Positions 2,111 through 64,000 of a stretch of 64,000 bases of DNA are shown piece after piece. The notes beneath the pieces were generated by a model, which saw only the letters and a program-made list of their open reading frames with translations, was not told the DNA's origin and did not search any database. This DNA comes from Candidatus Gastranaerophilales bacterium (GTDB lineage Bacteria > Cyanobacteriota > Vampirovibrionia > Gastranaerophilales > Gastranaerophilaceae): positions 95,790-159,789 of the forward strand of contig CALUPY010000002.1 in assembly GCA_944322755.1 (NCBI GenBank). Direction: 5' to 3'. Position 1 is the stretch's first letter, and every line of letters begins with the position of its first letter. Made by a program: the position numbers and the translations under genes.

Positions 2111-3685
2111 ATGGAAAATATTGTAGAAAATAAACCTGAAAAAACAATAAACCCCTGGTTGACCACTGTGGCAGTTATGACCGCAACGTTTATATTCGTA
2201 CTTGACGGTACGATTGCAAACGTTGCTCTGCCGCAGATGGCAGGGAGTTTTTCGTCAAGCAATGATGAAGCAACCTGGATTTTAACAAGCTATCTTATTG
2301 CCAGCGGTATAGTTGTACCGTCAGTTGACTGGTTTAGTAAGCTTTTTGGACGAAAACATTTTTTTATCGGATGTATATTATTGTTTACTGCTGCATCCTT
2401 GTTTTGCGGGCTTTCTCGTTCTCTCGATGTAATGATTTTTTCCCGTATATTGCAGGGACTCGGAGGCGGAGCTTTGCTGCCTGTTTCTCAGGCAATTCTT
2501 CTCGAGGCCTTTCCTAAAGAAAAGAGAGCGCTTGCCATGTCTATTTTCGGATTCGGTGTTGTAGTTGCGCCGGTTATTGGCCCGGTTTTGGGAGGATGGC
2601 TTACTGACAACTGGTCTTGGAGCTGGATTTTTTATATAAATATTCCTTTTGGTATATTTGCGGCTATTGCTTCCAGGATGTGGATTGTTGATCCTCCGTA
2701 TGCAAGAAAACAAAAAAATCCATACATTGATTATATCGGCTTTACTCTTTTGATAATCTGGCTCGTTACTCTGCAGGTTGTTCTTGACAAAGGCAACAAT
2801 GCGGATTGGTTTAATGCAACATGGGTTTGCGTGGTCAGTACTATTTCTGTAATCGCAATGGTTTTATTCATTTATTCGCAGATAAAACAGAAACGCTCAA
2901 TTATAAATCTCGGAGTTTTCAAAGACAGAAGTTTTCTGCTAGGTACTATAATACTTGTTCTTGTAAACATGGTTCTGTATGCTTCGACGACAATCATGCC
3001 GCTATTTTTACAAAATTTGTTAGGATATAGTGCATTTTTAAGCGGGTATTCTTTGATGCCAAGAGGCATTGGCAGTATTGCCGCTCTGGCATTGTACAGT
3101 CTTTTGAGTGATAAAATTGATTTTCGGATATTTACAGCCCTCGGGCTTATTCTTCTGGGGGTATCCGGGCTTATGTTCGGATTTTTGAATCTTGAGATTT
3201 CTATGATTAATATTATTTTGCCGAACTTGTTTTTTGGTTTTTCTGTAGGATTAACAGTTACGGTTTTGAGTACTGTTTCAATGGAGACAATTAGTAATGC
3301 TGATATGACCAATGCAAGCGGGGTTCAGAATCTTGTAAAAAATATCGGAGCTGCAGTCGGTACATCTCTTGTTGCAACAATGATTTCGAGATATTCTCAG
3401 GTTTTCCAGCACAATATGGTTGAATATCTTAATCCTCTAAATCCGATATATTCAGACAGACTTAACGAACTTACTATGTTTTTTGCGCAAATGGAGGAAT
3501 TTACATTTGCACAGGTAAAAGCTCAGGGTATGCTCTATCAGCAGCTTGTCCAGCAATCCACACTTTGGGCGTATATGCATTCCTTCAGAATATTCGGAGT
3601 TGTCTGCTTTGTGTGTCTTCCTCTGCTTTTATGTTACGGCCGCAAAAAAGACTCAAGCAAAGTCAATAAAACTCAGGAAATGTAG
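2111..3685 (+). CDS. MFS transporter, DHA2 (EmrB/QacA-like, 14-TMS) drug efflux family
   Basis: 524 aa and multi-TM. N-terminal FIFVLDGTIANVALPQMAGSF and LQGLGGGALLP motifs are characteristic of EmrB/QacA. Confidence 0.85.
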   Translation: MENIVENKPEKTINPWLTTVAVMTATFIFVLDGTIANVALPQMAGSFSSSNDEATWILTSYLIASGIVVPSVDWFSKLFGRKHFFIGCILLFTAASLFCGLSRSLDVMIFSRILQGLGGGALLPVSQAILLEAFPKEKRALAMSIFGFGVVVAPVIGPVLGGWLTDNWSWSWIFYINIPFGIFAAIASRMWIVDPPYARKQKNPYIDYIGFTLLIIWLVTLQVVLDKGNNADWFNATWVCVVSTISVIAMVLFIYSQIKQKRSIINLGVFKDRSFLLGTIILVLVNMVLYASTTIMPLFLQNLLGYSAFLSGYSLMPRGIGSIAALALYSLLSDKIDFRIFTALGLILLGVSGLMFGFLNLEISMINIILPNLFFGFSVGLTVTVLSTVSMETISNADMTNASGVQNLVKNIGAAVGTSLVATMISRYSQVFQHNMVEYLNPLNPIYSDRLNELTMFFAQMEEFTFAQVKAQGMLYQQLVQQSTLWAYMHSFRIFGVVCFVCLPLLLCYGRKKDSSKVNKTQEM

Positions 3686-4026
3686 GTTTTAATCGTATTT
3701 AAGAATTCATCAATTTTTATGGGTTTGGGAATATAGTCTATACAGCCCAGATTTTTTGCCTTTTCTATTTCTTTATCCATTGCACAGGCAGAAACAACAA
3801 TGACCGGCGGACGTTCAATATCTTTTGTTGCTTCTAAAAAATCATAACCTGTGTAAACCGGCATTTGAATATCTAAAAGGATGAGATCAAATTTTTCTGA
3901 TTTAACCATGTCTACACCGGTAAGCCCATCCTCTGCTGTTTCGATTTCATATCCTGCAAACTCCAGCACATCTTTCATGAGTTTCAGGTTAAGTTCATTA
4001 TCTTCGATGATAAGTATTTTTTTCAT
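3673..4026 (-). CDS. single-domain response regulator (CheY-like receiver)
   Basis: 117 aa. ILIIEDNELN, phospho-acceptor context DLILLDIQMP and a C-terminal PKPI motif. Its 3' end overlaps the convergent MFS gene by 13 nt. Confidence 0.85.
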   Translation of the reverse strand: MKKILIIEDNELNLKLMKDVLEFAGYEIETAEDGLTGVDMVKSEKFDLILLDIQMPVYTGYDFLEATKDIERPPVIVVSACAMDKEIEKAKNLGCIDYIPKPIKIDEFLNTIKTYIS

Positions 4027-26217: not shown

Positions 26218-26243
26218 TAAAACAACTCATAATTATATTGATA

Positions 26244-26280
26244 AAAGCTCTCTGTAGTCTACAGTGAGCTTTTTGTTTTT
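26244..26280 (+). terminator. intrinsic terminator ending the ribosomal protein cluster after rplR
   Basis: AAAGCTC...GAGCTTT stem with an inner CTGTAG/CTACAG pairing, followed by TTTTTGTTTTT. Confidence 0.65.
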
Positions 26281-26342
26281 AATGAATATAAACCCCTGAT
26301 TAGAAAAATAAATCAGGGCTTTTATTAATTTAAATTAAGATT

Positions 26343-26918
26343 TTAAAATTTTACCTGAGGAACTGCTTTTTCTGCTTCGCTTGCTTCGAAGTATTCACGC
26401 GTTTTTATACCTGAAATTGCCGCAACTATTGATGTCGGGAATGTCCTGATTTTAGCATTGAGTGTTTTTACGCTTTCGTTGTAGTCCATTCTCGCAACCG
26501 CAAGTCTGTTTTCTGTTCCTGCAAGTTCATCCTGCAGAGCAGTAAAAGATTTGTCAGCTTTGAGCTGTGGATATCTCTCAACAACGAGCAGTAGTCTGGA
26601 TAAAGCTCCGGTAAGTTCGCTATTGCTGTTTTGAATGGCTTTTACGTCATTTTTATTCATTGCACCGGAGAGTTTTGAGCGTGCGTCTGCAATGTTTGTG
26701 AATACTGCTTTTTCATGGGTTGCATAGCCCTTGACCGTTTCAACAAGGTTCGGTATTAAATCATTTCTCCTTTTTAGCTGGTTTTCAACCTGTGCCCATT
26801 GGCCGTTTATTTGTTCGTCCATAATTTGAAGATTGTTGTACGCACCGATAAAAGAACCGGCTATCATTACTCCGAGAATCAGTATTACTCCTAAAATAAT
26901 CCATACTGTTTTGTTCAT
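26343..26918 (-). CDS. lemA: LemA family protein
   Basis: 191 aa. N-terminal TM, YNNLQ...WAQVENQLKRRNDLIPNLVETVKGYA and ...RMDYNESVKTLN are LemA hallmarks. Confidence 0.9.
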   Translation of the reverse strand: MNKTVWIILGVILILGVMIAGSFIGAYNNLQIMDEQINGQWAQVENQLKRRNDLIPNLVETVKGYATHEKAVFTNIADARSKLSGAMNKNDVKAIQNSNSELTGALSRLLLVVERYPQLKADKSFTALQDELAGTENRLAVARMDYNESVKTLNAKIRTFPTSIVAAISGIKTREYFEASEAEKAVPQVKF

Positions 26919-59729: not shown

Positions 59730-61121
59730 TCAGGCGGCCTTTCTTTGCTCTCTGAACAATATTCTTGCTTTTCTGACAATACCTCCAAGACTTGAAAAAT
59801 ATCCTGCGGCAACAATTATTGCTGCTGTCACCCAAGCAATCGGACCGGCATAAAATATTCCCATATATCCAAACTTTACAGCAAGATAAACAGCAGCAAA
59901 GGATCTGACAATAAGCTCTGCAAGACTTGCGCTCAGAGGAATTATCACTTGTCCCATTCCTTGCAATGCATTTCTGAATATAAAAATTTGTCCAAGGAAA
60001 AAGTAGAAAAGTGAACTTAAAAAAAGGTATTCATGGGCAATTTCTATTATATGATGTTTTGAGTCTCCGAGAAAAATTTTAACAATCTCTGCGCCCTGAT
60101 AATGCATAATAAATGCCATTATAATGCTGAGACAAATACAAATAAGGGAGCACTTGTTCACACCCAAACGTATTCTTGCGAAATTATTTGCACCATAATT
60201 TTGTGCTGTATATGCTGCTAGTGCAACACCAAATGATATCATCGGCATTGTCGCTATCTGCTCTATTCGCAAAGCTGCGGTAAATGCTGCAATTACATCA
60301 GGCCCAAATGTATTGCATACGCTTTGTATGATAAGTATGCCAAATCCTAAAATAGAAAACTGTATTGCCATTGGAATACCGACTTTTAAATGGTCGAATG
60401 CAAATGAAAGTTCTTTATCTCTATTATTTTTTAAATCAAATGTCCAGTCAGATTTTTTTAAATGTAAAATTGGAAAACGTTTTTTTACATAAAAAAGGCA
60501 TAGAATAACAGAAACAGCCTGTGAAAAAATGACAGCAACAGCAGATCCGGGTACTCCCCAGTGAAATACAAGAATAAACAGCAGAGCCAGAAAAACATTC
60601 AATATAGAAGCAAAAATTAAGAAGTATAGAGGTGTTTTACTGTCGCCCAGTGCTCTGACTATATTAGCCAGCAGATTATAAAAATTGCAAATCCAAAGTC
60701 CACCGATTACTATTTGAATATACCAGAATGCATCTTTATATATTTCTTGCGGAACATTCATAATATAAAGAATTTTGTTCATAAATACAGCAAGAATTAC
60801 TGAAAAAAACAATGTAAAAACTGAACTTAGAATTGTTGATACCGTGACTGACTTACGAACACCTGAGAAATCTTTTGCTCCAAAACGCTGACCTGTGATA
60901 ACAGCAAAACCATTTGTCAGTCCGACGACAACAAACATAATAAAGAAAAATATTGGAGATATAGCTCCCACAGCGGCAAGGGCATTTATTCCAAGAGTCC
61001 TGCCTACTATAACTATGTCGGCTATATTATACAACTGTTGGAAAATATTTCCGATAAGAAGGGGAACAGAGAACCAAAATATCAGGCTCAAGGGGTTACC
61101 CTTTGTCATATCATTAATCAT
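59730..61121 (-). CDS. MATE-family efflux transporter
   Basis: N-terminus MINDMTKGNPLSLIFWFSVPLLIGNIFQQLYN with 12 TM segments. ATG 61121 with GAGGA SD is preferred over TTG 61133. Confidence 0.85.
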   Translation of the reverse strand: MINDMTKGNPLSLIFWFSVPLLIGNIFQQLYNIADIVIVGRTLGINALAAVGAISPIFFFIMFVVVGLTNGFAVITGQRFGAKDFSGVRKSVTVSTILSSVFTLFFSVILAVFMNKILYIMNVPQEIYKDAFWYIQIVIGGLWICNFYNLLANIVRALGDSKTPLYFLIFASILNVFLALLFILVFHWGVPGSAVAVIFSQAVSVILCLFYVKKRFPILHLKKSDWTFDLKNNRDKELSFAFDHLKVGIPMAIQFSILGFGILIIQSVCNTFGPDVIAAFTAALRIEQIATMPMISFGVALAAYTAQNYGANNFARIRLGVNKCSLICICLSIIMAFIMHYQGAEIVKIFLGDSKHHIIEIAHEYLFLSSLFYFFLGQIFIFRNALQGMGQVIIPLSASLAELIVRSFAAVYLAVKFGYMGIFYAGPIAWVTAAIIVAAGYFSSLGGIVRKARILFREQRKAA

Positions 61122-61221
61122 TGTTATCCTCAAATTTTTCCGTATATTTTACATGATTATATAAAAATAATTTTATTCAAACCCACTGACGAGATGATTG
61201 CTGATAATCTATTAAAGTTTG

Positions 61222-62451
61222 CTACACGCGAAAAGCTTTGAAGGTCGGATTTAGCTGCTGATGGGATGGATAGTGCTGATTTTTTTGTTCTTTTGTAAAA
61301 CGGTATTTTGTAAATAAATTAGAAATTCCTGCAACAAAAAATCCCATAAATCCAATGCTAAAAAGGTATGGAACACCTGATATCAGAGTCTTTTGTTTTG
61401 CCAGCTTTTTGAATTCTGTTTCTGCTTTTGAGCCATTTCGTTGTGCGTAGCTTTTTGCGAGTTTTTCCAGTTCTTCAAATGACGGTACTTCCAGATTTTT
61501 TCCGATTGTTTCTTTACATTTTTCCATTTTTACAAGAAGTTTTTTGAATCCTTTTTCAAAGAGTTCGCTACCTGTAATTATGTAAAATCCGACAACGGGA
61601 AATCTAAATAAAGTTTCCAGAAAATTTTGTTTTCCACGGTCTTTTGAAGCACCAAAATATCCTGCTCCGCCAATGAGTACACAGGAGGTAAGCTGCCCTT
61701 TGCTGAGAACAAGTTTCCCGTCCTGTTGTGCAAAATCAATACTAAAGTATTTGTTGAAAAAGTTTTTGGCTTTTTGATTATTTTTAAATAATTTTGTTCC
61801 GGGAGCCAGTATAAGTTCGCTCAGGTTTTGCAATGTTTTTGAGTCAGCACCTTTTTTTGCAATTAGTGTACCGAGTCCCAAACATCCTGCAAACACAGAC
61901 GCAGCCCGAAGAATGTTCTTTTTCGCACTCTTTTCAACTTTGTTCTGGAGCGTTTTGTCCTCTTTTTTATTTTCCAGAGCTGCTATATTATTGAAGTCTG
62001 CTTTGTTAAATGCTTTTATTGTGAAAATATTTTTGAAATAGTTAAGGGTAAATTCTGTGAGCGGGATAAGCATTGCACTCAGTGCAATGCCTGCTTTTAC
62101 CGGTAGAATTTTTTTGTTCAGCGGATTTTTTGTTTCAAGAAGTTTTGCGGCAGGAGTAGGAATGAGCTTTTTGGCAGTGTTTTCAAGTTTCTTGGAAAAA
62201 ATCTTTCTTGAAATTTTCTCTCCGATTAGAGCCGGAGCGAAATATACAAGTCCGCTTTCAGACAGTTCAAGAAATGCATTTTCTGCCAAATCAGCAGCAC
62301 TTCTGGAAAAAACAGCTTTGGGCAGCAGACATGTTCCTGTGTCCTGAATAAATCTGGATGTTGACAGTCCTGAAGCTTGCTCCTGATAATTTATAAACTT
62401 TGCGGCTGATTTTAACGGCTGGGCTAATGTATTTATTAATGTGATGTGCAT
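61222..62451 (-). CDS. hypothetical membrane protein (about 5-6 hydrophobic segments, Lys-rich loops, no Trp)
   Basis: The start is placed at ATG 62451 (MHITLINTL...) because AAGAAGG lies 8 nt upstream. The track start 62487 lies inside a terminator hairpin. Confidence 0.55.
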   Translation of the reverse strand: MHITLINTLAQPLKSAAKFINYQEQASGLSTSRFIQDTGTCLLPKAVFSRSAADLAENAFLELSESGLVYFAPALIGEKISRKIFSKKLENTAKKLIPTPAAKLLETKNPLNKKILPVKAGIALSAMLIPLTEFTLNYFKNIFTIKAFNKADFNNIAALENKKEDKTLQNKVEKSAKKNILRAASVFAGCLGLGTLIAKKGADSKTLQNLSELILAPGTKLFKNNQKAKNFFNKYFSIDFAQQDGKLVLSKGQLTSCVLIGGAGYFGASKDRGKQNFLETLFRFPVVGFYIITGSELFEKGFKKLLVKMEKCKETIGKNLEVPSFEELEKLAKSYAQRNGSKAETEFKKLAKQKTLISGVPYLFSIGFMGFFVAGISNLFTKYRFTKEQKNQHYPSHQQLNPTFKAFRV

Positions 62452-62472
62452 ATCTGTTACCTTCTTTAAACT

Positions 62473-62504
62473 AAAAAACCTGTACATATTAAATCAGTAC
62501 AGGT
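62473..62504 (-). terminator. intrinsic terminator forming the 3:4 element of an attenuator
   Basis: The minus strand reads ACCTGTAC-TGATTTAATAT-GTACAGGT followed by a T run (TTTTTT counting the last stem base). Confidence 0.7.
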
Positions 62505-62542
62505 CTTTCATAAAAATTATATGCGTTATACACCTGTACTCT

Positions 62543-62593
62543 CTACAGGCGCCACCAATTTCTATTTAAGTTTAAAGAATTTCTATTTGTCAT
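62543..62593 (-). CDS. candidate 16-codon leader peptide MTNRNSLNLNRNWWRL
   Basis: ATG at 62593..62591, tandem TGG TGG at 62557..62552 and stop TAG at 62545..62543 inside stem segment 1. There is no SD; the ATG sits 6 nt after a -10 hexamer (leaderless geometry). Confidence 0.45.
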   Translation of the reverse strand: MTNRNSLNLNRNWWRL

Positions 62594-62599
62594 ACCAGC

Positions 62600-62628
62600 A
62601 TAGTAACAATAAAATATTACTGCGTCAA
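62600..62628 (-). promoter_or_regulatory. promoter of the attenuator leader
   Basis: The minus strand reads TTGACG (62628..62623), 17 nt spacer, TACTAT (62605..62600). Confidence 0.5.
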
Positions 62629-62658
62629 TAGTCCCGATTTACAATATGTTACAGCTTT

Positions 62659-63846
62659 TCACTTTACTTCACAGTATTTTGCAATAAATTCCGCAACATT
62701 CATGACGACAGGTTTGCGCGCATTAAGTTCAATAAGCCCCTGATTAAGTCCGAGTTTGCAGGCAGGGCAGTTGGTTAAAACAAACCCGGCTCCAGTCTGA
62801 AGTATGTCTTTCGCTTTGCGTTTTGATATTTCTCTTGAAATATTTTGGTGTGTAAGAGCAAATTTGCCGGAAAAACCGCAGCATTTATCAAAATTCTCAG
62901 CCTCAATATATTCTGCATTTTCAATATTTTTTAAAAGTGTAATAAAATCAAAATCATCATGGCAGGGTTTATGTGCTGTTATTTTTATCTTCTCTTTGAC
63001 GACGGATATTTTTTTATCTTTTATTAAATCAAGTATACTGACTACCTTAGATGTAATATCAGATGGCACATACTTTTCATAAGACTTTAGAACATAACTG
63101 CAAGACGCACAGTCTGTTAAGATGTAATCACAATCTTGAGGTATTAAAGAAAGATTATGTTTTGCGATTTTTAAAAATTCTTTTTCCAGACCTGAGCTTA
63201 GAAGGCTTATCCCGCAGCATTCAAACGGTTTTTCAATTACTTCAATATCTGTATTTTCTAAAATTTTTTTTACTGCATTAGCTGAATCATTGTTTATGTA
63301 GTTATTGAAACACCCTTTAAAAAACACGGCTTTTTTCGTTTTTTGTGAATGTGCTGCTGTCTTTTTTGTATGGTTCGGAAGGAGCTTTTTGGCAAGGGTG
63401 TTAAATAACAATATTCGTTTGAGTAAAAAATTATTTATGCCATAGAAGAGCTTATTAGTTATTATGTCCAGTTTTAAGCTGCGATATACAATTAATGCTG
63501 CTCCTGCAGTAATCAACAGCATTTTAAAAAAACTGTATGAATTGGTAAATGGAATGTGTTTGTATCTGTAATATTGCGCTTTTACTGCAGTAAATATTTC
63601 GCGTGCATCGATATTACTCGGACAGAACTCCTTGCAGGCATTACATCCGAGACACAAATCCATATACTCCAGAATTTTTTTGTTGAGTGTCAAATCTCCT
63701 TTTAGTATTCCATTTAGCATATTGAATTTTGTTCTGGAGACAGAACACTCATTTAGTGTAACTTTATAAACAGGGCAGACCGTCTGGCAGAGTCCGCAGC
63801 GTGAACATTTGTATATTTCTTCTTGAAAATCATTCAAATTCTTCAT
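62659..63846 (-). CDS. (Fe-S)-binding oxidoreductase subunit with two 4Fe-4S motifs and two CCG domains (GlcF/HdrD-like)
   Basis: CSRCGLCQTVCP and CLGCNACKEFCP ferredoxin motifs, then two CCG-containing Cys-rich domains (FECCG, DKCCGFSG). Confidence 0.75.
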   Translation of the reverse strand: MKNLNDFQEEIYKCSRCGLCQTVCPVYKVTLNECSVSRTKFNMLNGILKGDLTLNKKILEYMDLCLGCNACKEFCPSNIDAREIFTAVKAQYYRYKHIPFTNSYSFFKMLLITAGAALIVYRSLKLDIITNKLFYGINNFLLKRILLFNTLAKKLLPNHTKKTAAHSQKTKKAVFFKGCFNNYINNDSANAVKKILENTDIEVIEKPFECCGISLLSSGLEKEFLKIAKHNLSLIPQDCDYILTDCASCSYVLKSYEKYVPSDITSKVVSILDLIKDKKISVVKEKIKITAHKPCHDDFDFITLLKNIENAEYIEAENFDKCCGFSGKFALTHQNISREISKRKAKDILQTGAGFVLTNCPACKLGLNQGLIELNARKPVVMNVAEFIAKYCEVK

Positions 63847-63940
63847 TACAAATAATATTATATAAATAAAATAAATTTAGTGGTAAAATTGAAGAAAAAT
63901 AAGTTGCATCACTTAAAAAGTATGAATAAAGGATAGGGAA

Positions 63941-64000
63941 ATGAAGGCAGCCTTTGCAGAAAATCAACAGATAGTTATAAAAGATATTGAAAAACCGGTG
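63941..64000 (+). CDS. 5' end of an ORF running off the right edge (possibly MDR-type dehydrogenase)
   Basis: MKAAFAENQQIVIKDIEKPV resembles the N-terminus of zinc-type alcohol dehydrogenases. Only 20 codons are visible. Confidence 0.3.
   Translation, partial: MKAAFAENQQIVIKDIEKPV

Follow-up and report, generated by a model that had tools for sequence, protein, structure and literature searches.

A 64,000-nucleotide (nt) stretch of a Candidatus Gastranaerophilales genome (contig CALUPY010000002.1, positions 95,790 to 159,789 of the forward strand; hereafter, the window, numbered from its first letter) raises the question of what signal controls a minus-strand gene for an uncharacterized, probably membrane-located protein of 409 amino acids (aa) (61222..62451) and why this gene, which has no Trp codon, should be preceded by a short open reading frame (ORF) with two adjacent Trp codons. 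An earlier note, made from the sequence of the window, had read the intervening region as a Trp-responsive leader-peptide attenuator. Having followed up this proposal by folding, comparison of orthologous loci, and profile searches, we conclude, with a probability of about 0.85, that the leader is a ribosome-mediated Trp transcription attenuator of the classical mechanism, which would sense charged tRNA-Trp and control this single gene. As the mechanism is classical, the main interest lies in the Trp-free target and in the wider pattern of Trp and Met leaders to which it belongs.

Reading of the minus strand base by base between 62300 and 62800 confirmed, position for position, the promoter, leader ORF, TGG codons, four stem segments, T run, Shine-Dalgarno (SD) sequence, and ATG that the earlier note had described. 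The promoter consists of a -35 hexamer, TTGACG (62628-62623), recognized both by eye and in a promoter scan, and, after a 17-nt spacer, an extended -10 element, TGtTACTAT (62608-62600; TACTAT, 62605-62600), in which the TG lies two bases upstream of the hexamer; with the TG, it scores 9/12 in the scan. Loci of class A, the leader class of the window (see below), mostly keep TTGAC at the equivalent place. The -10 hexamer ends 6 nt before the ATG (62593) of the leader ORF, MTNRNSLNLNRNWWRL* (the asterisk denotes the stop), which has 16 codons plus a TAG stop codon (62545-62543) and ends W-W-R-L-stop. Because of this short distance, we predict a leaderless transcript for this ORF, probably starting at or beside A62593; leaderless translation of leader peptides is known in Actinobacteria. 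A comparable spacing is found in 44 of the 52 class A loci, where a TAnnnT hexamer with a TTG-type -35 element is followed after 6 to 7 nt by a leader ATG that lacks an SD sequence, whereas the leaders of class B have an SD sequence (AAAGGAAA) 8 to 9 nt before the ATG instead.

Codons 13 and 14 of the leader ORF, UGG UGG (62557-62552), are the predicted sensing site. Segment 1 (core CGCCTGTA, 62551-62544; extended form GGCGCCUGUA, 62553-62544) takes in the first two bases of the leader stop codon. Segment 2 (GTACAGGTG, or GUACAGGUG; 62539-62531) has either segment 1 or segment 3 as its partner, and segment 3 (core ACCTGTAC, 62504-62497; extended form AAGACCUGUACU, 62507-62496) can in turn pair with segment 2, to give an antiterminator, or with segment 4 (GTACAGGT, 62485-62478), to give a terminator. 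Directly joined to segment 4 is a T6 run (62478-62473; segment and run together are GUACAGGU, 62485-62473), which with 3:4 makes up an intrinsic terminator. The SD sequence AAGAAGG (62466-62460) and the ATG at 62451 of the regulated gene follow. Alignment with homologs places the start of this gene at 62451 (409 aa) and led us to reject the ATG at 62487 (421 aa) that is used in some public gene calls (P0001/P0002); the rejected ATG falls within the terminator, where it is part of the loop and 3' arm.

The minus strand from 62600 to 62452 (149 nt) folds with a minimum free energy (MFE) of -43.3 kcal/mol, compared with -24.4 ± 3.3 kcal/mol in 200 shuffles (z = -5.76), none of which is equally stable, and the MFE structure consists of 1:2 and 3:4. 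The isolated 1:2, 2:3, and 3:4 hairpins have energies of -13.4, -14.0, and -12.6 kcal/mol, respectively; thus, the mutually exclusive 2:3 antiterminator that had been proposed is comparable in energy to the hairpins with which it would compete. The 3:4 hairpin comprises 8 to 10 bp and is followed by the U6 run; a terminator scan with a loop limit of 8 nt did not list it because its 11-nt loop exceeds that limit. We then constrained the folds with a ribosome assumed to cover ~12 nt 3' of its A site, the size of this footprint being an assumption. With the ribosome on either Trp codon and the transcript ended before segment 4, the 2:3 antiterminator is the MFE structure; a ribosome placed on the stop codon masks most of segment 2 and leaves a sole alternative worth -2.0 kcal/mol, so that 3:4 can form. 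In these constrained folds, the geometry of the leader therefore fits a switch in which a stalled ribosome permits 2:3 and a ribosome on the stop codon prevents it.

For comparison, a genome scan with the downstream protein yielded 80 loci from different species (protein identity, 59 to 92%), nearly all of them labeled Gastranaerophilales or Melainabacteria metagenome-assembled genomes, with a few bin names that are evidently wrong. A leader ORF with UGG-UGG precedes the gene in 79 of these loci: in 78, it starts with ATG, spans 13 to 26 codons, and lies 135 to 220 nt upstream of the gene, and at L045 an equivalent ORF starts with TTG. An arrangement that recurs in 79 of 80 species goes well beyond what chance would give. 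The sole orthologous locus with neither leader ORF nor hairpins, L065 (2700-3000), has a promoter directly before a gene that is still Trp free; there, the attenuator has apparently been lost. Most leaders belong to class A ('...LNLNN.WW(R/C)L*'; 52 loci, including the window), class B ('...NLNTQSWW(H/C/R)LF..TGLLSW(R/Q)*'; 20 loci), in which there is a third Trp codon and the ORF runs through hairpin 1:2, or class C ('...KLNNQWWRS*'; 5 loci), with variant leaders at L006 and L052. Both UGG codons are invariant in all 72 distinct leaders, and the N-terminal part of the peptide is variable. The codon after W-W is CGC, CAC, UGC, or AAC and is followed by CUG, with the CCUG of stem 1 kept throughout; hence, the R-L that follows W-W is attributable to the constraint on stem 1 at the RNA level. 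The stop codon of class A, whose U and A lie within the stem, is UAG and UAA equally often. Leu at -4 and Asn at -3/-2 are kept even between distant leader classes, which hints that the nascent peptide is under an added constraint beyond its two Trp codons.

The pairings were examined with a covariance model built from the window's own subgroup, which matches the window at a single site (92 bits) and gives 77 matches among the loci, and in the corresponding alignment, which comprises 74 distinct sequences. In this alignment, pairing is kept at 95% for 1:2 and 3:4 together, compared with 11 to 42% for slid controls (helix 1 by itself, 96%), and double-sided changes occur in 10 of their 15 pairs, with 0 of 500 shuffles reaching the observed values. 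The 2:3 pairs, which were not used in fitting the alignment, are 87% paired, compared with 22 to 38% when slid, and their compensatory changes include UA>AU, AU>GC, and UA>CG. At L044, for example, segments 2 (UGCAGG) and 3 (CCUGCA) have changed together and 1:2 and 3:4 survive via G-U pairs. The stems of class C differ wholly from those of the window (e.g., GGCGCAGCUA / UGGCUGCCU / GUCAGGCGGUC), and those of L052 (GGGUUAGU / ACUGCCC / UAAGGGUAGUA) also have different letters; 1:2, 2:3, and 3:4 still pair in both. Retention of the pairings despite the changed sequences in these three cases argues for RNA pairing and not for a sequence-specific protein site. Folding of the loci one by one gave a similar picture: in nearly every locus, the last hairpin provides, through its 5' arm, the best downstream partner of segment 2. 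The small ORF, the W-W codons, and both alternative pairings described in the earlier note are kept across orthologs, and compensatory changes accompany them.

The output of the leader varies between species. A T run follows 3:4 in 31 of the 52 class A loci and also in class B; in the 21 class A loci that lack one, the 3:4 helix is longer and pairs with the SD sequence of the gene in 20. The same Trp sensor thus appears to drive termination in some species and SD sequestration, at the level of translation, in others, a kind of swap that genuine regulatory RNAs typically show; a single sensor that works with a terminator in one case and an SD-sequestering helix in another would represent a natural exchange of expression platforms in a leader-peptide system. 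The T-run-less hairpins lie at ~2950-3000 with the SD sequence AAGGA in L003, L010-L013, L015, L017-L023, L025, L027, L028, L032, and L038-L041. Class B loci (e.g., L072, 2913-2990; L074; L070; L056) have a further long-range helix around the terminator; the 5' arm of this helix begins at the leader stop, just after the third Trp codon, and the 3' arm follows the T run.

On this basis, we propose the following course of events at the window locus. Transcription would start at or beside the leader AUG, giving a leaderless mRNA on which a ribosome loads once the RNA emerges. When Trp-tRNA is plentiful, the ribosome would reach the UAG at 62545-62543, and its footprint, ~12 nt past the A site, would cover most of segment 2; segment 3 would then be free for segment 4, and 3:4 with the U6 run would terminate transcription near 62473. 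When Trp-tRNA is scarce, the ribosome would stall with UGG 62557-62555 or 62554-62552 in its A site and cover segment 1, so that 2:3 would pair as soon as segment 3 is made, no terminator would form, and RNA polymerase would enter the gene. As the product has no Trp, its synthesis should be possible during Trp starvation. The transcription start, the geometry of the footprint, and the response to Trp-tRNA charging are the inferred parts of this scheme.

Several points weigh against the attenuator reading. The host is uncultured, and the mechanism is predicted from sequence and computed folds. At equilibrium, masking of segment 1 does not stop the full-length leader from favoring the terminator (-18.8 to -20.2 kcal/mol); since the terminator wins once segment 4 exists, the switch must be kinetic, as is that of the Escherichia coli trp leader. 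Within the window's subgroup (class A loci that have a T run), the four segments are almost invariant; the covariation therefore comes mainly from comparisons between subgroups, and the covariance-model alignment was fitted to the 1:2 and 3:4 pairs and leans toward them. The regulated gene is not one for trp biosynthesis. Finally, the Leu at -4 (UUG, UUA, or CUU) and the Asn at -3/-2 are conserved beyond what a simple attenuation model needs.

This last point speaks for a different kind of sensor, in which the nascent leader peptide would sense free Trp, in the manner of TnaC, or another small molecule, and stalling on excess would induce the gene when Trp is abundant. Peptide conservation reaches past W-W, the Leu at -4 being kept via three synonymous codons, and motifs of the '..LNN.WW' type recur in distant leaders. 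However, the length and N-terminal sequence of the peptide vary widely, the R-L after W-W is explained by the RNA of stem 1 (CGC>CAC, UGC, AAC, with CCUG fixed), and the stall site and stop codon lie, with respect to segments 1 and 2, where the starvation model would place them. Unlike TnaC, the peptide ends W-W-R-L-stop, has neither Asp nor Pro, and thus lacks the W-x3-D-x7-P pattern, and the leader has an intrinsic terminator with an alternative pairing and does not rely on Rho. The Trp-free targets and the Met-poor paralogs behind Met leaders (see below) fit induction by shortage and not by excess. We therefore regard a peptide sensor of this kind as unlikely. Slightly less probable again is that the GTACAGG and CCTGTAC repeats bind a protein, whether as a DNA operator or through an RNA-binding regulator, that sets the choice between terminator and antiterminator. 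Near invariance of the segments in class A could mean sequence-specific recognition; having two partners per segment, however, itself explains slow drift, and other sequences maintain the pairings in classes B and C and at L052. Conservation of the W-W codons, the reading frame, and the position of the stop relative to stem 1 also speaks against a protein site, and the leader has no TRAP-like array of 9 to 11 (G/U)AG triplets and no match to the T-box or another Rfam family.

The earlier note had itself raised the alternative that the 3:4 hairpin and T run merely terminate the upstream Fe-S (CCG-domain) gene, the ORF and segments being fortuitous. The hairpin does lie ~155 nt downstream of the Fe-S stop codon (62659) on the same strand, but a promoter-like site stands between the two, and the T run is absent from 21 class A loci. 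The upstream neighbor is not the same from locus to locus, and in 31 of 76 it is divergent; the Fe-S gene is found there only in L001 and L002, the two closest relatives, yet the leader, W-W, and the segments stay with the downstream gene when other genes are upstream. An operon with the downstream MATE gene was likewise considered and rejected, MATE being downstream in 0 of the 80 loci. These changing neighbors remove both readings, so that a terminator of the Fe-S gene is now a very remote prospect, and they assign the leader element, by its distribution, to the downstream gene. We thus return to ribosome-mediated attenuation and to the protein that it would control.

The protein belongs to a family that, as far as its sequence distribution indicates, is restricted to Melainabacteria and is uncharacterized: there are >1,000 relatives, none of them named, and the family is a small one, with 211 clusters at the 50% identity level in a set of 1.8 billion proteins. 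Neither the protein nor 10 distant homologs have a match in Pfam or NCBIfam, and a sequence profile search of the Protein Data Bank (PDB) returned no real match to the protein. An AlphaFold2 model (predicted local distance difference test score, 85.8; predicted template modeling [TM] score, 0.81) is confident and all-helical, with very long helices, and Foldseek comparison of this model with the PDB gave no match at E ≤ 0.001 and TM scores of at most ~0.2. Hydrophobicity is strong in three 19-residue windows and moderate in several others, pointing to a likely membrane location. The description of the product as uncharacterized accordingly stands after Pfam, NCBIfam, and PDB searches, as does the statement that the leader does not precede a trp biosynthesis operon: the downstream gene falls into none of the Pfam or NCBIfam families, and searches of the 64-kb window with simple motifs for TrpA to TrpE signatures found none. 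As for the lineage, Di Rienzi 2013 (PMC3787301) names other amino acids, not Trp, as missing, and Soo 2014 (PMC4040986) is silent on Trp biosynthesis.

The 409-aa product contains zero Trp, as the earlier note had observed. For a single protein of this length, that is unremarkable in this genome (P ~0.06), and the significance of the absence comes from the whole orthologous set. Trp is absent from 119 of 120 close homologs (1 W in 48,654 residues), and all genes with a W leader together encode 5 W in 33,158 residues (0.015%), compared with a background of 0.70% in the long ORFs of the window and 0.9% in distant family members. Two Trp residues that are invariant in the paralogs described below, W74 (TNW.PK) and W420 (R.WTQYRY), are L and F, respectively, in the window protein. 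The simplest guess at the role of the protein is uptake or salvage of the limiting amino acid, a tentative idea that we think is rather more apt to be wrong than right.

The same order also has a paralogous subfamily, with proteins of ~455 aa that are 40 to 48% identical to the window protein and contain Trp. In 26 loci, these paralogs are preceded by Met-rich leader ORFs (e.g., MNMMAMMSMQMMMCMPTLACRM, MINHNATMMMQMMMSMYDTGRLSFLLRM, and MSDMMMDMQMMMCMSASVCRM*), most of which end R-M-stop. Such leaders are seen at L081 (5849-6000) and at L084-L105, L112, L116, L118, and L119, 200 to 300 nt upstream of the match. All nine Met-leader loci that were folded have a T run of at least 5 downstream of the leader ORF, and in six of the nine a hairpin immediately precedes the run. 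At L088, L092, L095, and L101, a segment inside the Met-leader ORF is, as read by eye, complementary to the 5' arm of the hairpin; at L081, this complementarity appears when a longer stretch is folded. The Met-rich leaders thus look like methionine-sensing leader-peptide attenuators. The proteins behind them are Met poor (0.85% versus 1.45%) and have an ordinary Trp content. In two cases (L092 with L106 and L091 with L110), contigs of near-identical coverage in the same assembly carry one paralog of each kind, and this match in coverage indicates that one genome probably holds both. The Trp starvation response proposed in the earlier note is strengthened by these two groups, the Trp-free orthologs and the Met-poor paralogs with Met-rich leaders.

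More distant relatives bear on the age of the association. At L121, a leader, MFIPNTQINAQCWWWQPFEEPPVSS* (...CWWWQPF...), and a terminator (709-945) precede tandem family genes (946-2460 and 2549-3985) that encode distant, higher-GC homologs with 7 and 2 Trp residues. The Trp-free state is therefore not universal in the family, and the Trp-codon leader implies that the link between the family and Trp leaders is old. It is possible, at somewhat under even odds, that the paralogs form a new family of starvation effectors, helical membrane proteins with an unmatched fold, each induced by an attenuator for one single-codon amino acid (UGG-UGG or UGG-UGG-UGG for Trp, AUG-rich ORFs for Met) and each purged of that amino acid. 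Were this so, the Met-rich leaders, too, would be ribosome-mediated attenuators, for methionine, and the family would most simply be a new uptake system for Trp and Met.

How does the element relate to known systems? In design, it resembles the enterobacterial trpL leader, as the earlier note had claimed: both have a short ORF with tandem UGG codons just before or overlapping segment 1 and a stop near segments 1 and 2; both combine a 1:2 pause or anti-antiterminator hairpin, a 2:3 antiterminator, and a 3:4 terminator with a U run; both are predicted to be derepressed when Trp-tRNA is scarce; and both have comparable 2:3 and 3:4 energies, implying a kinetic switch. The likeness does not extend to homology. 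The Rfam Trp_leader model (RF00513) matches 62470-62563 on the minus strand over its full length with 20.0 bits, compared with a gathering score of 41 (E = 0.083 in a 281-nt search and 1.2 in a 4-kb search). Furthermore, the host belongs to Melainabacteria (Gastranaerophilales) and not to Proteobacteria, the gene controlled here is a single one for a Trp-free protein with no trp biosynthesis genes, the leader is apparently leaderless, and sister species seem to use SD sequestration in place of termination. None of the Rfam 15 models, T-box included, reaches its gathering score in 60000-64000 or 62400-62680; the best weak matches are all to Trp leaders or motifs, among them Bacteroid-trp (RF01692; 19.7 bits versus 49) and the trpB motif (RF04312; 19.8 bits versus 59).

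Leader peptides of Bacteroidetes (RF01692) and of actinobacteria (trp, leu, ilv, and cys), the latter often leaderless, form independent lineage-specific families. The window leader shares with Bacteroid-trp a Trp-codon leader ORF with terminator and antiterminator alternatives and with the actinobacterial leaders a leaderless transcript, which is inferred here, but those leaders precede biosynthesis operons and this one precedes an uncharacterized membrane protein gene. Trp transporter genes come under other Trp sensors, i.e., TRAP at Bacillus trpP/yhaG and Trp T-boxes. Our proposal likewise ties Trp limitation to a non-biosynthetic membrane protein gene; the sensor, however, would be a translating ribosome rather than the TRAP protein or the binding of uncharged tRNA, and the protein has no similarity to known transporter families. 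A further parallel is with nutrient-sparing paralogs, such as sulfur-depleted proteins made under sulfur limitation and zinc-free paralogs of ribosomal proteins made under zinc limitation. There, as proposed here, an induced protein lacks the scarce nutrient and a paralog of normal composition exists in the same lineage; the differences are that here a single amino acid is spared (Trp, or Met for the paralog) and that the switch is a leader-peptide attenuator. Any functional replacement between the paralogs here is putative. By its sequence features, the element is best filed as a new lineage-specific family in the known class of leader-peptide attenuators. Literature searches found no description of leader peptides or attenuators of Melainabacteria or of Met-rich attenuator leaders, although their incomplete coverage makes this weak evidence, and a search on the trpB motif found nothing relevant.

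If the attenuator reading is correct, classical ribosome-mediated attenuation would extend to Melainabacteria, the non-photosynthetic sister lineage of Cyanobacteria, whose attenuators no Rfam family covers. Trp limitation would also offer a testable physiological handle on a conserved family that has no annotation, Pfam domain, or structural relative. The pairing of a Trp leader with a Trp-free protein and of a Met leader with a Met-poor protein is an unusually clean match of composition to signal; it points to amino acid scavenging in uncultured human gut bacteria and could inform the design of cultivation media.

Some minor features of the window remain to be mentioned. One, picked out by the terminator scan, is a perfect 9-bp hairpin, GCATTGCACTCAGTGCAATGC (62070-62090, plus strand), which lies inside the regulated gene but antisense to it. 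Candidates for a second copy of the attenuator in the window, weak matches of the covariance model at 3153-3220 and 26236-26329, were rejected as coding sequence and ordinary terminators. The intergenic region 26236-26359 holds a pair of neighboring hairpins, ctctgtagtctacagtgagcttttt and cccctgattagaaaaataaatcagggctttt, that have T or A runs and resemble ordinary terminators.

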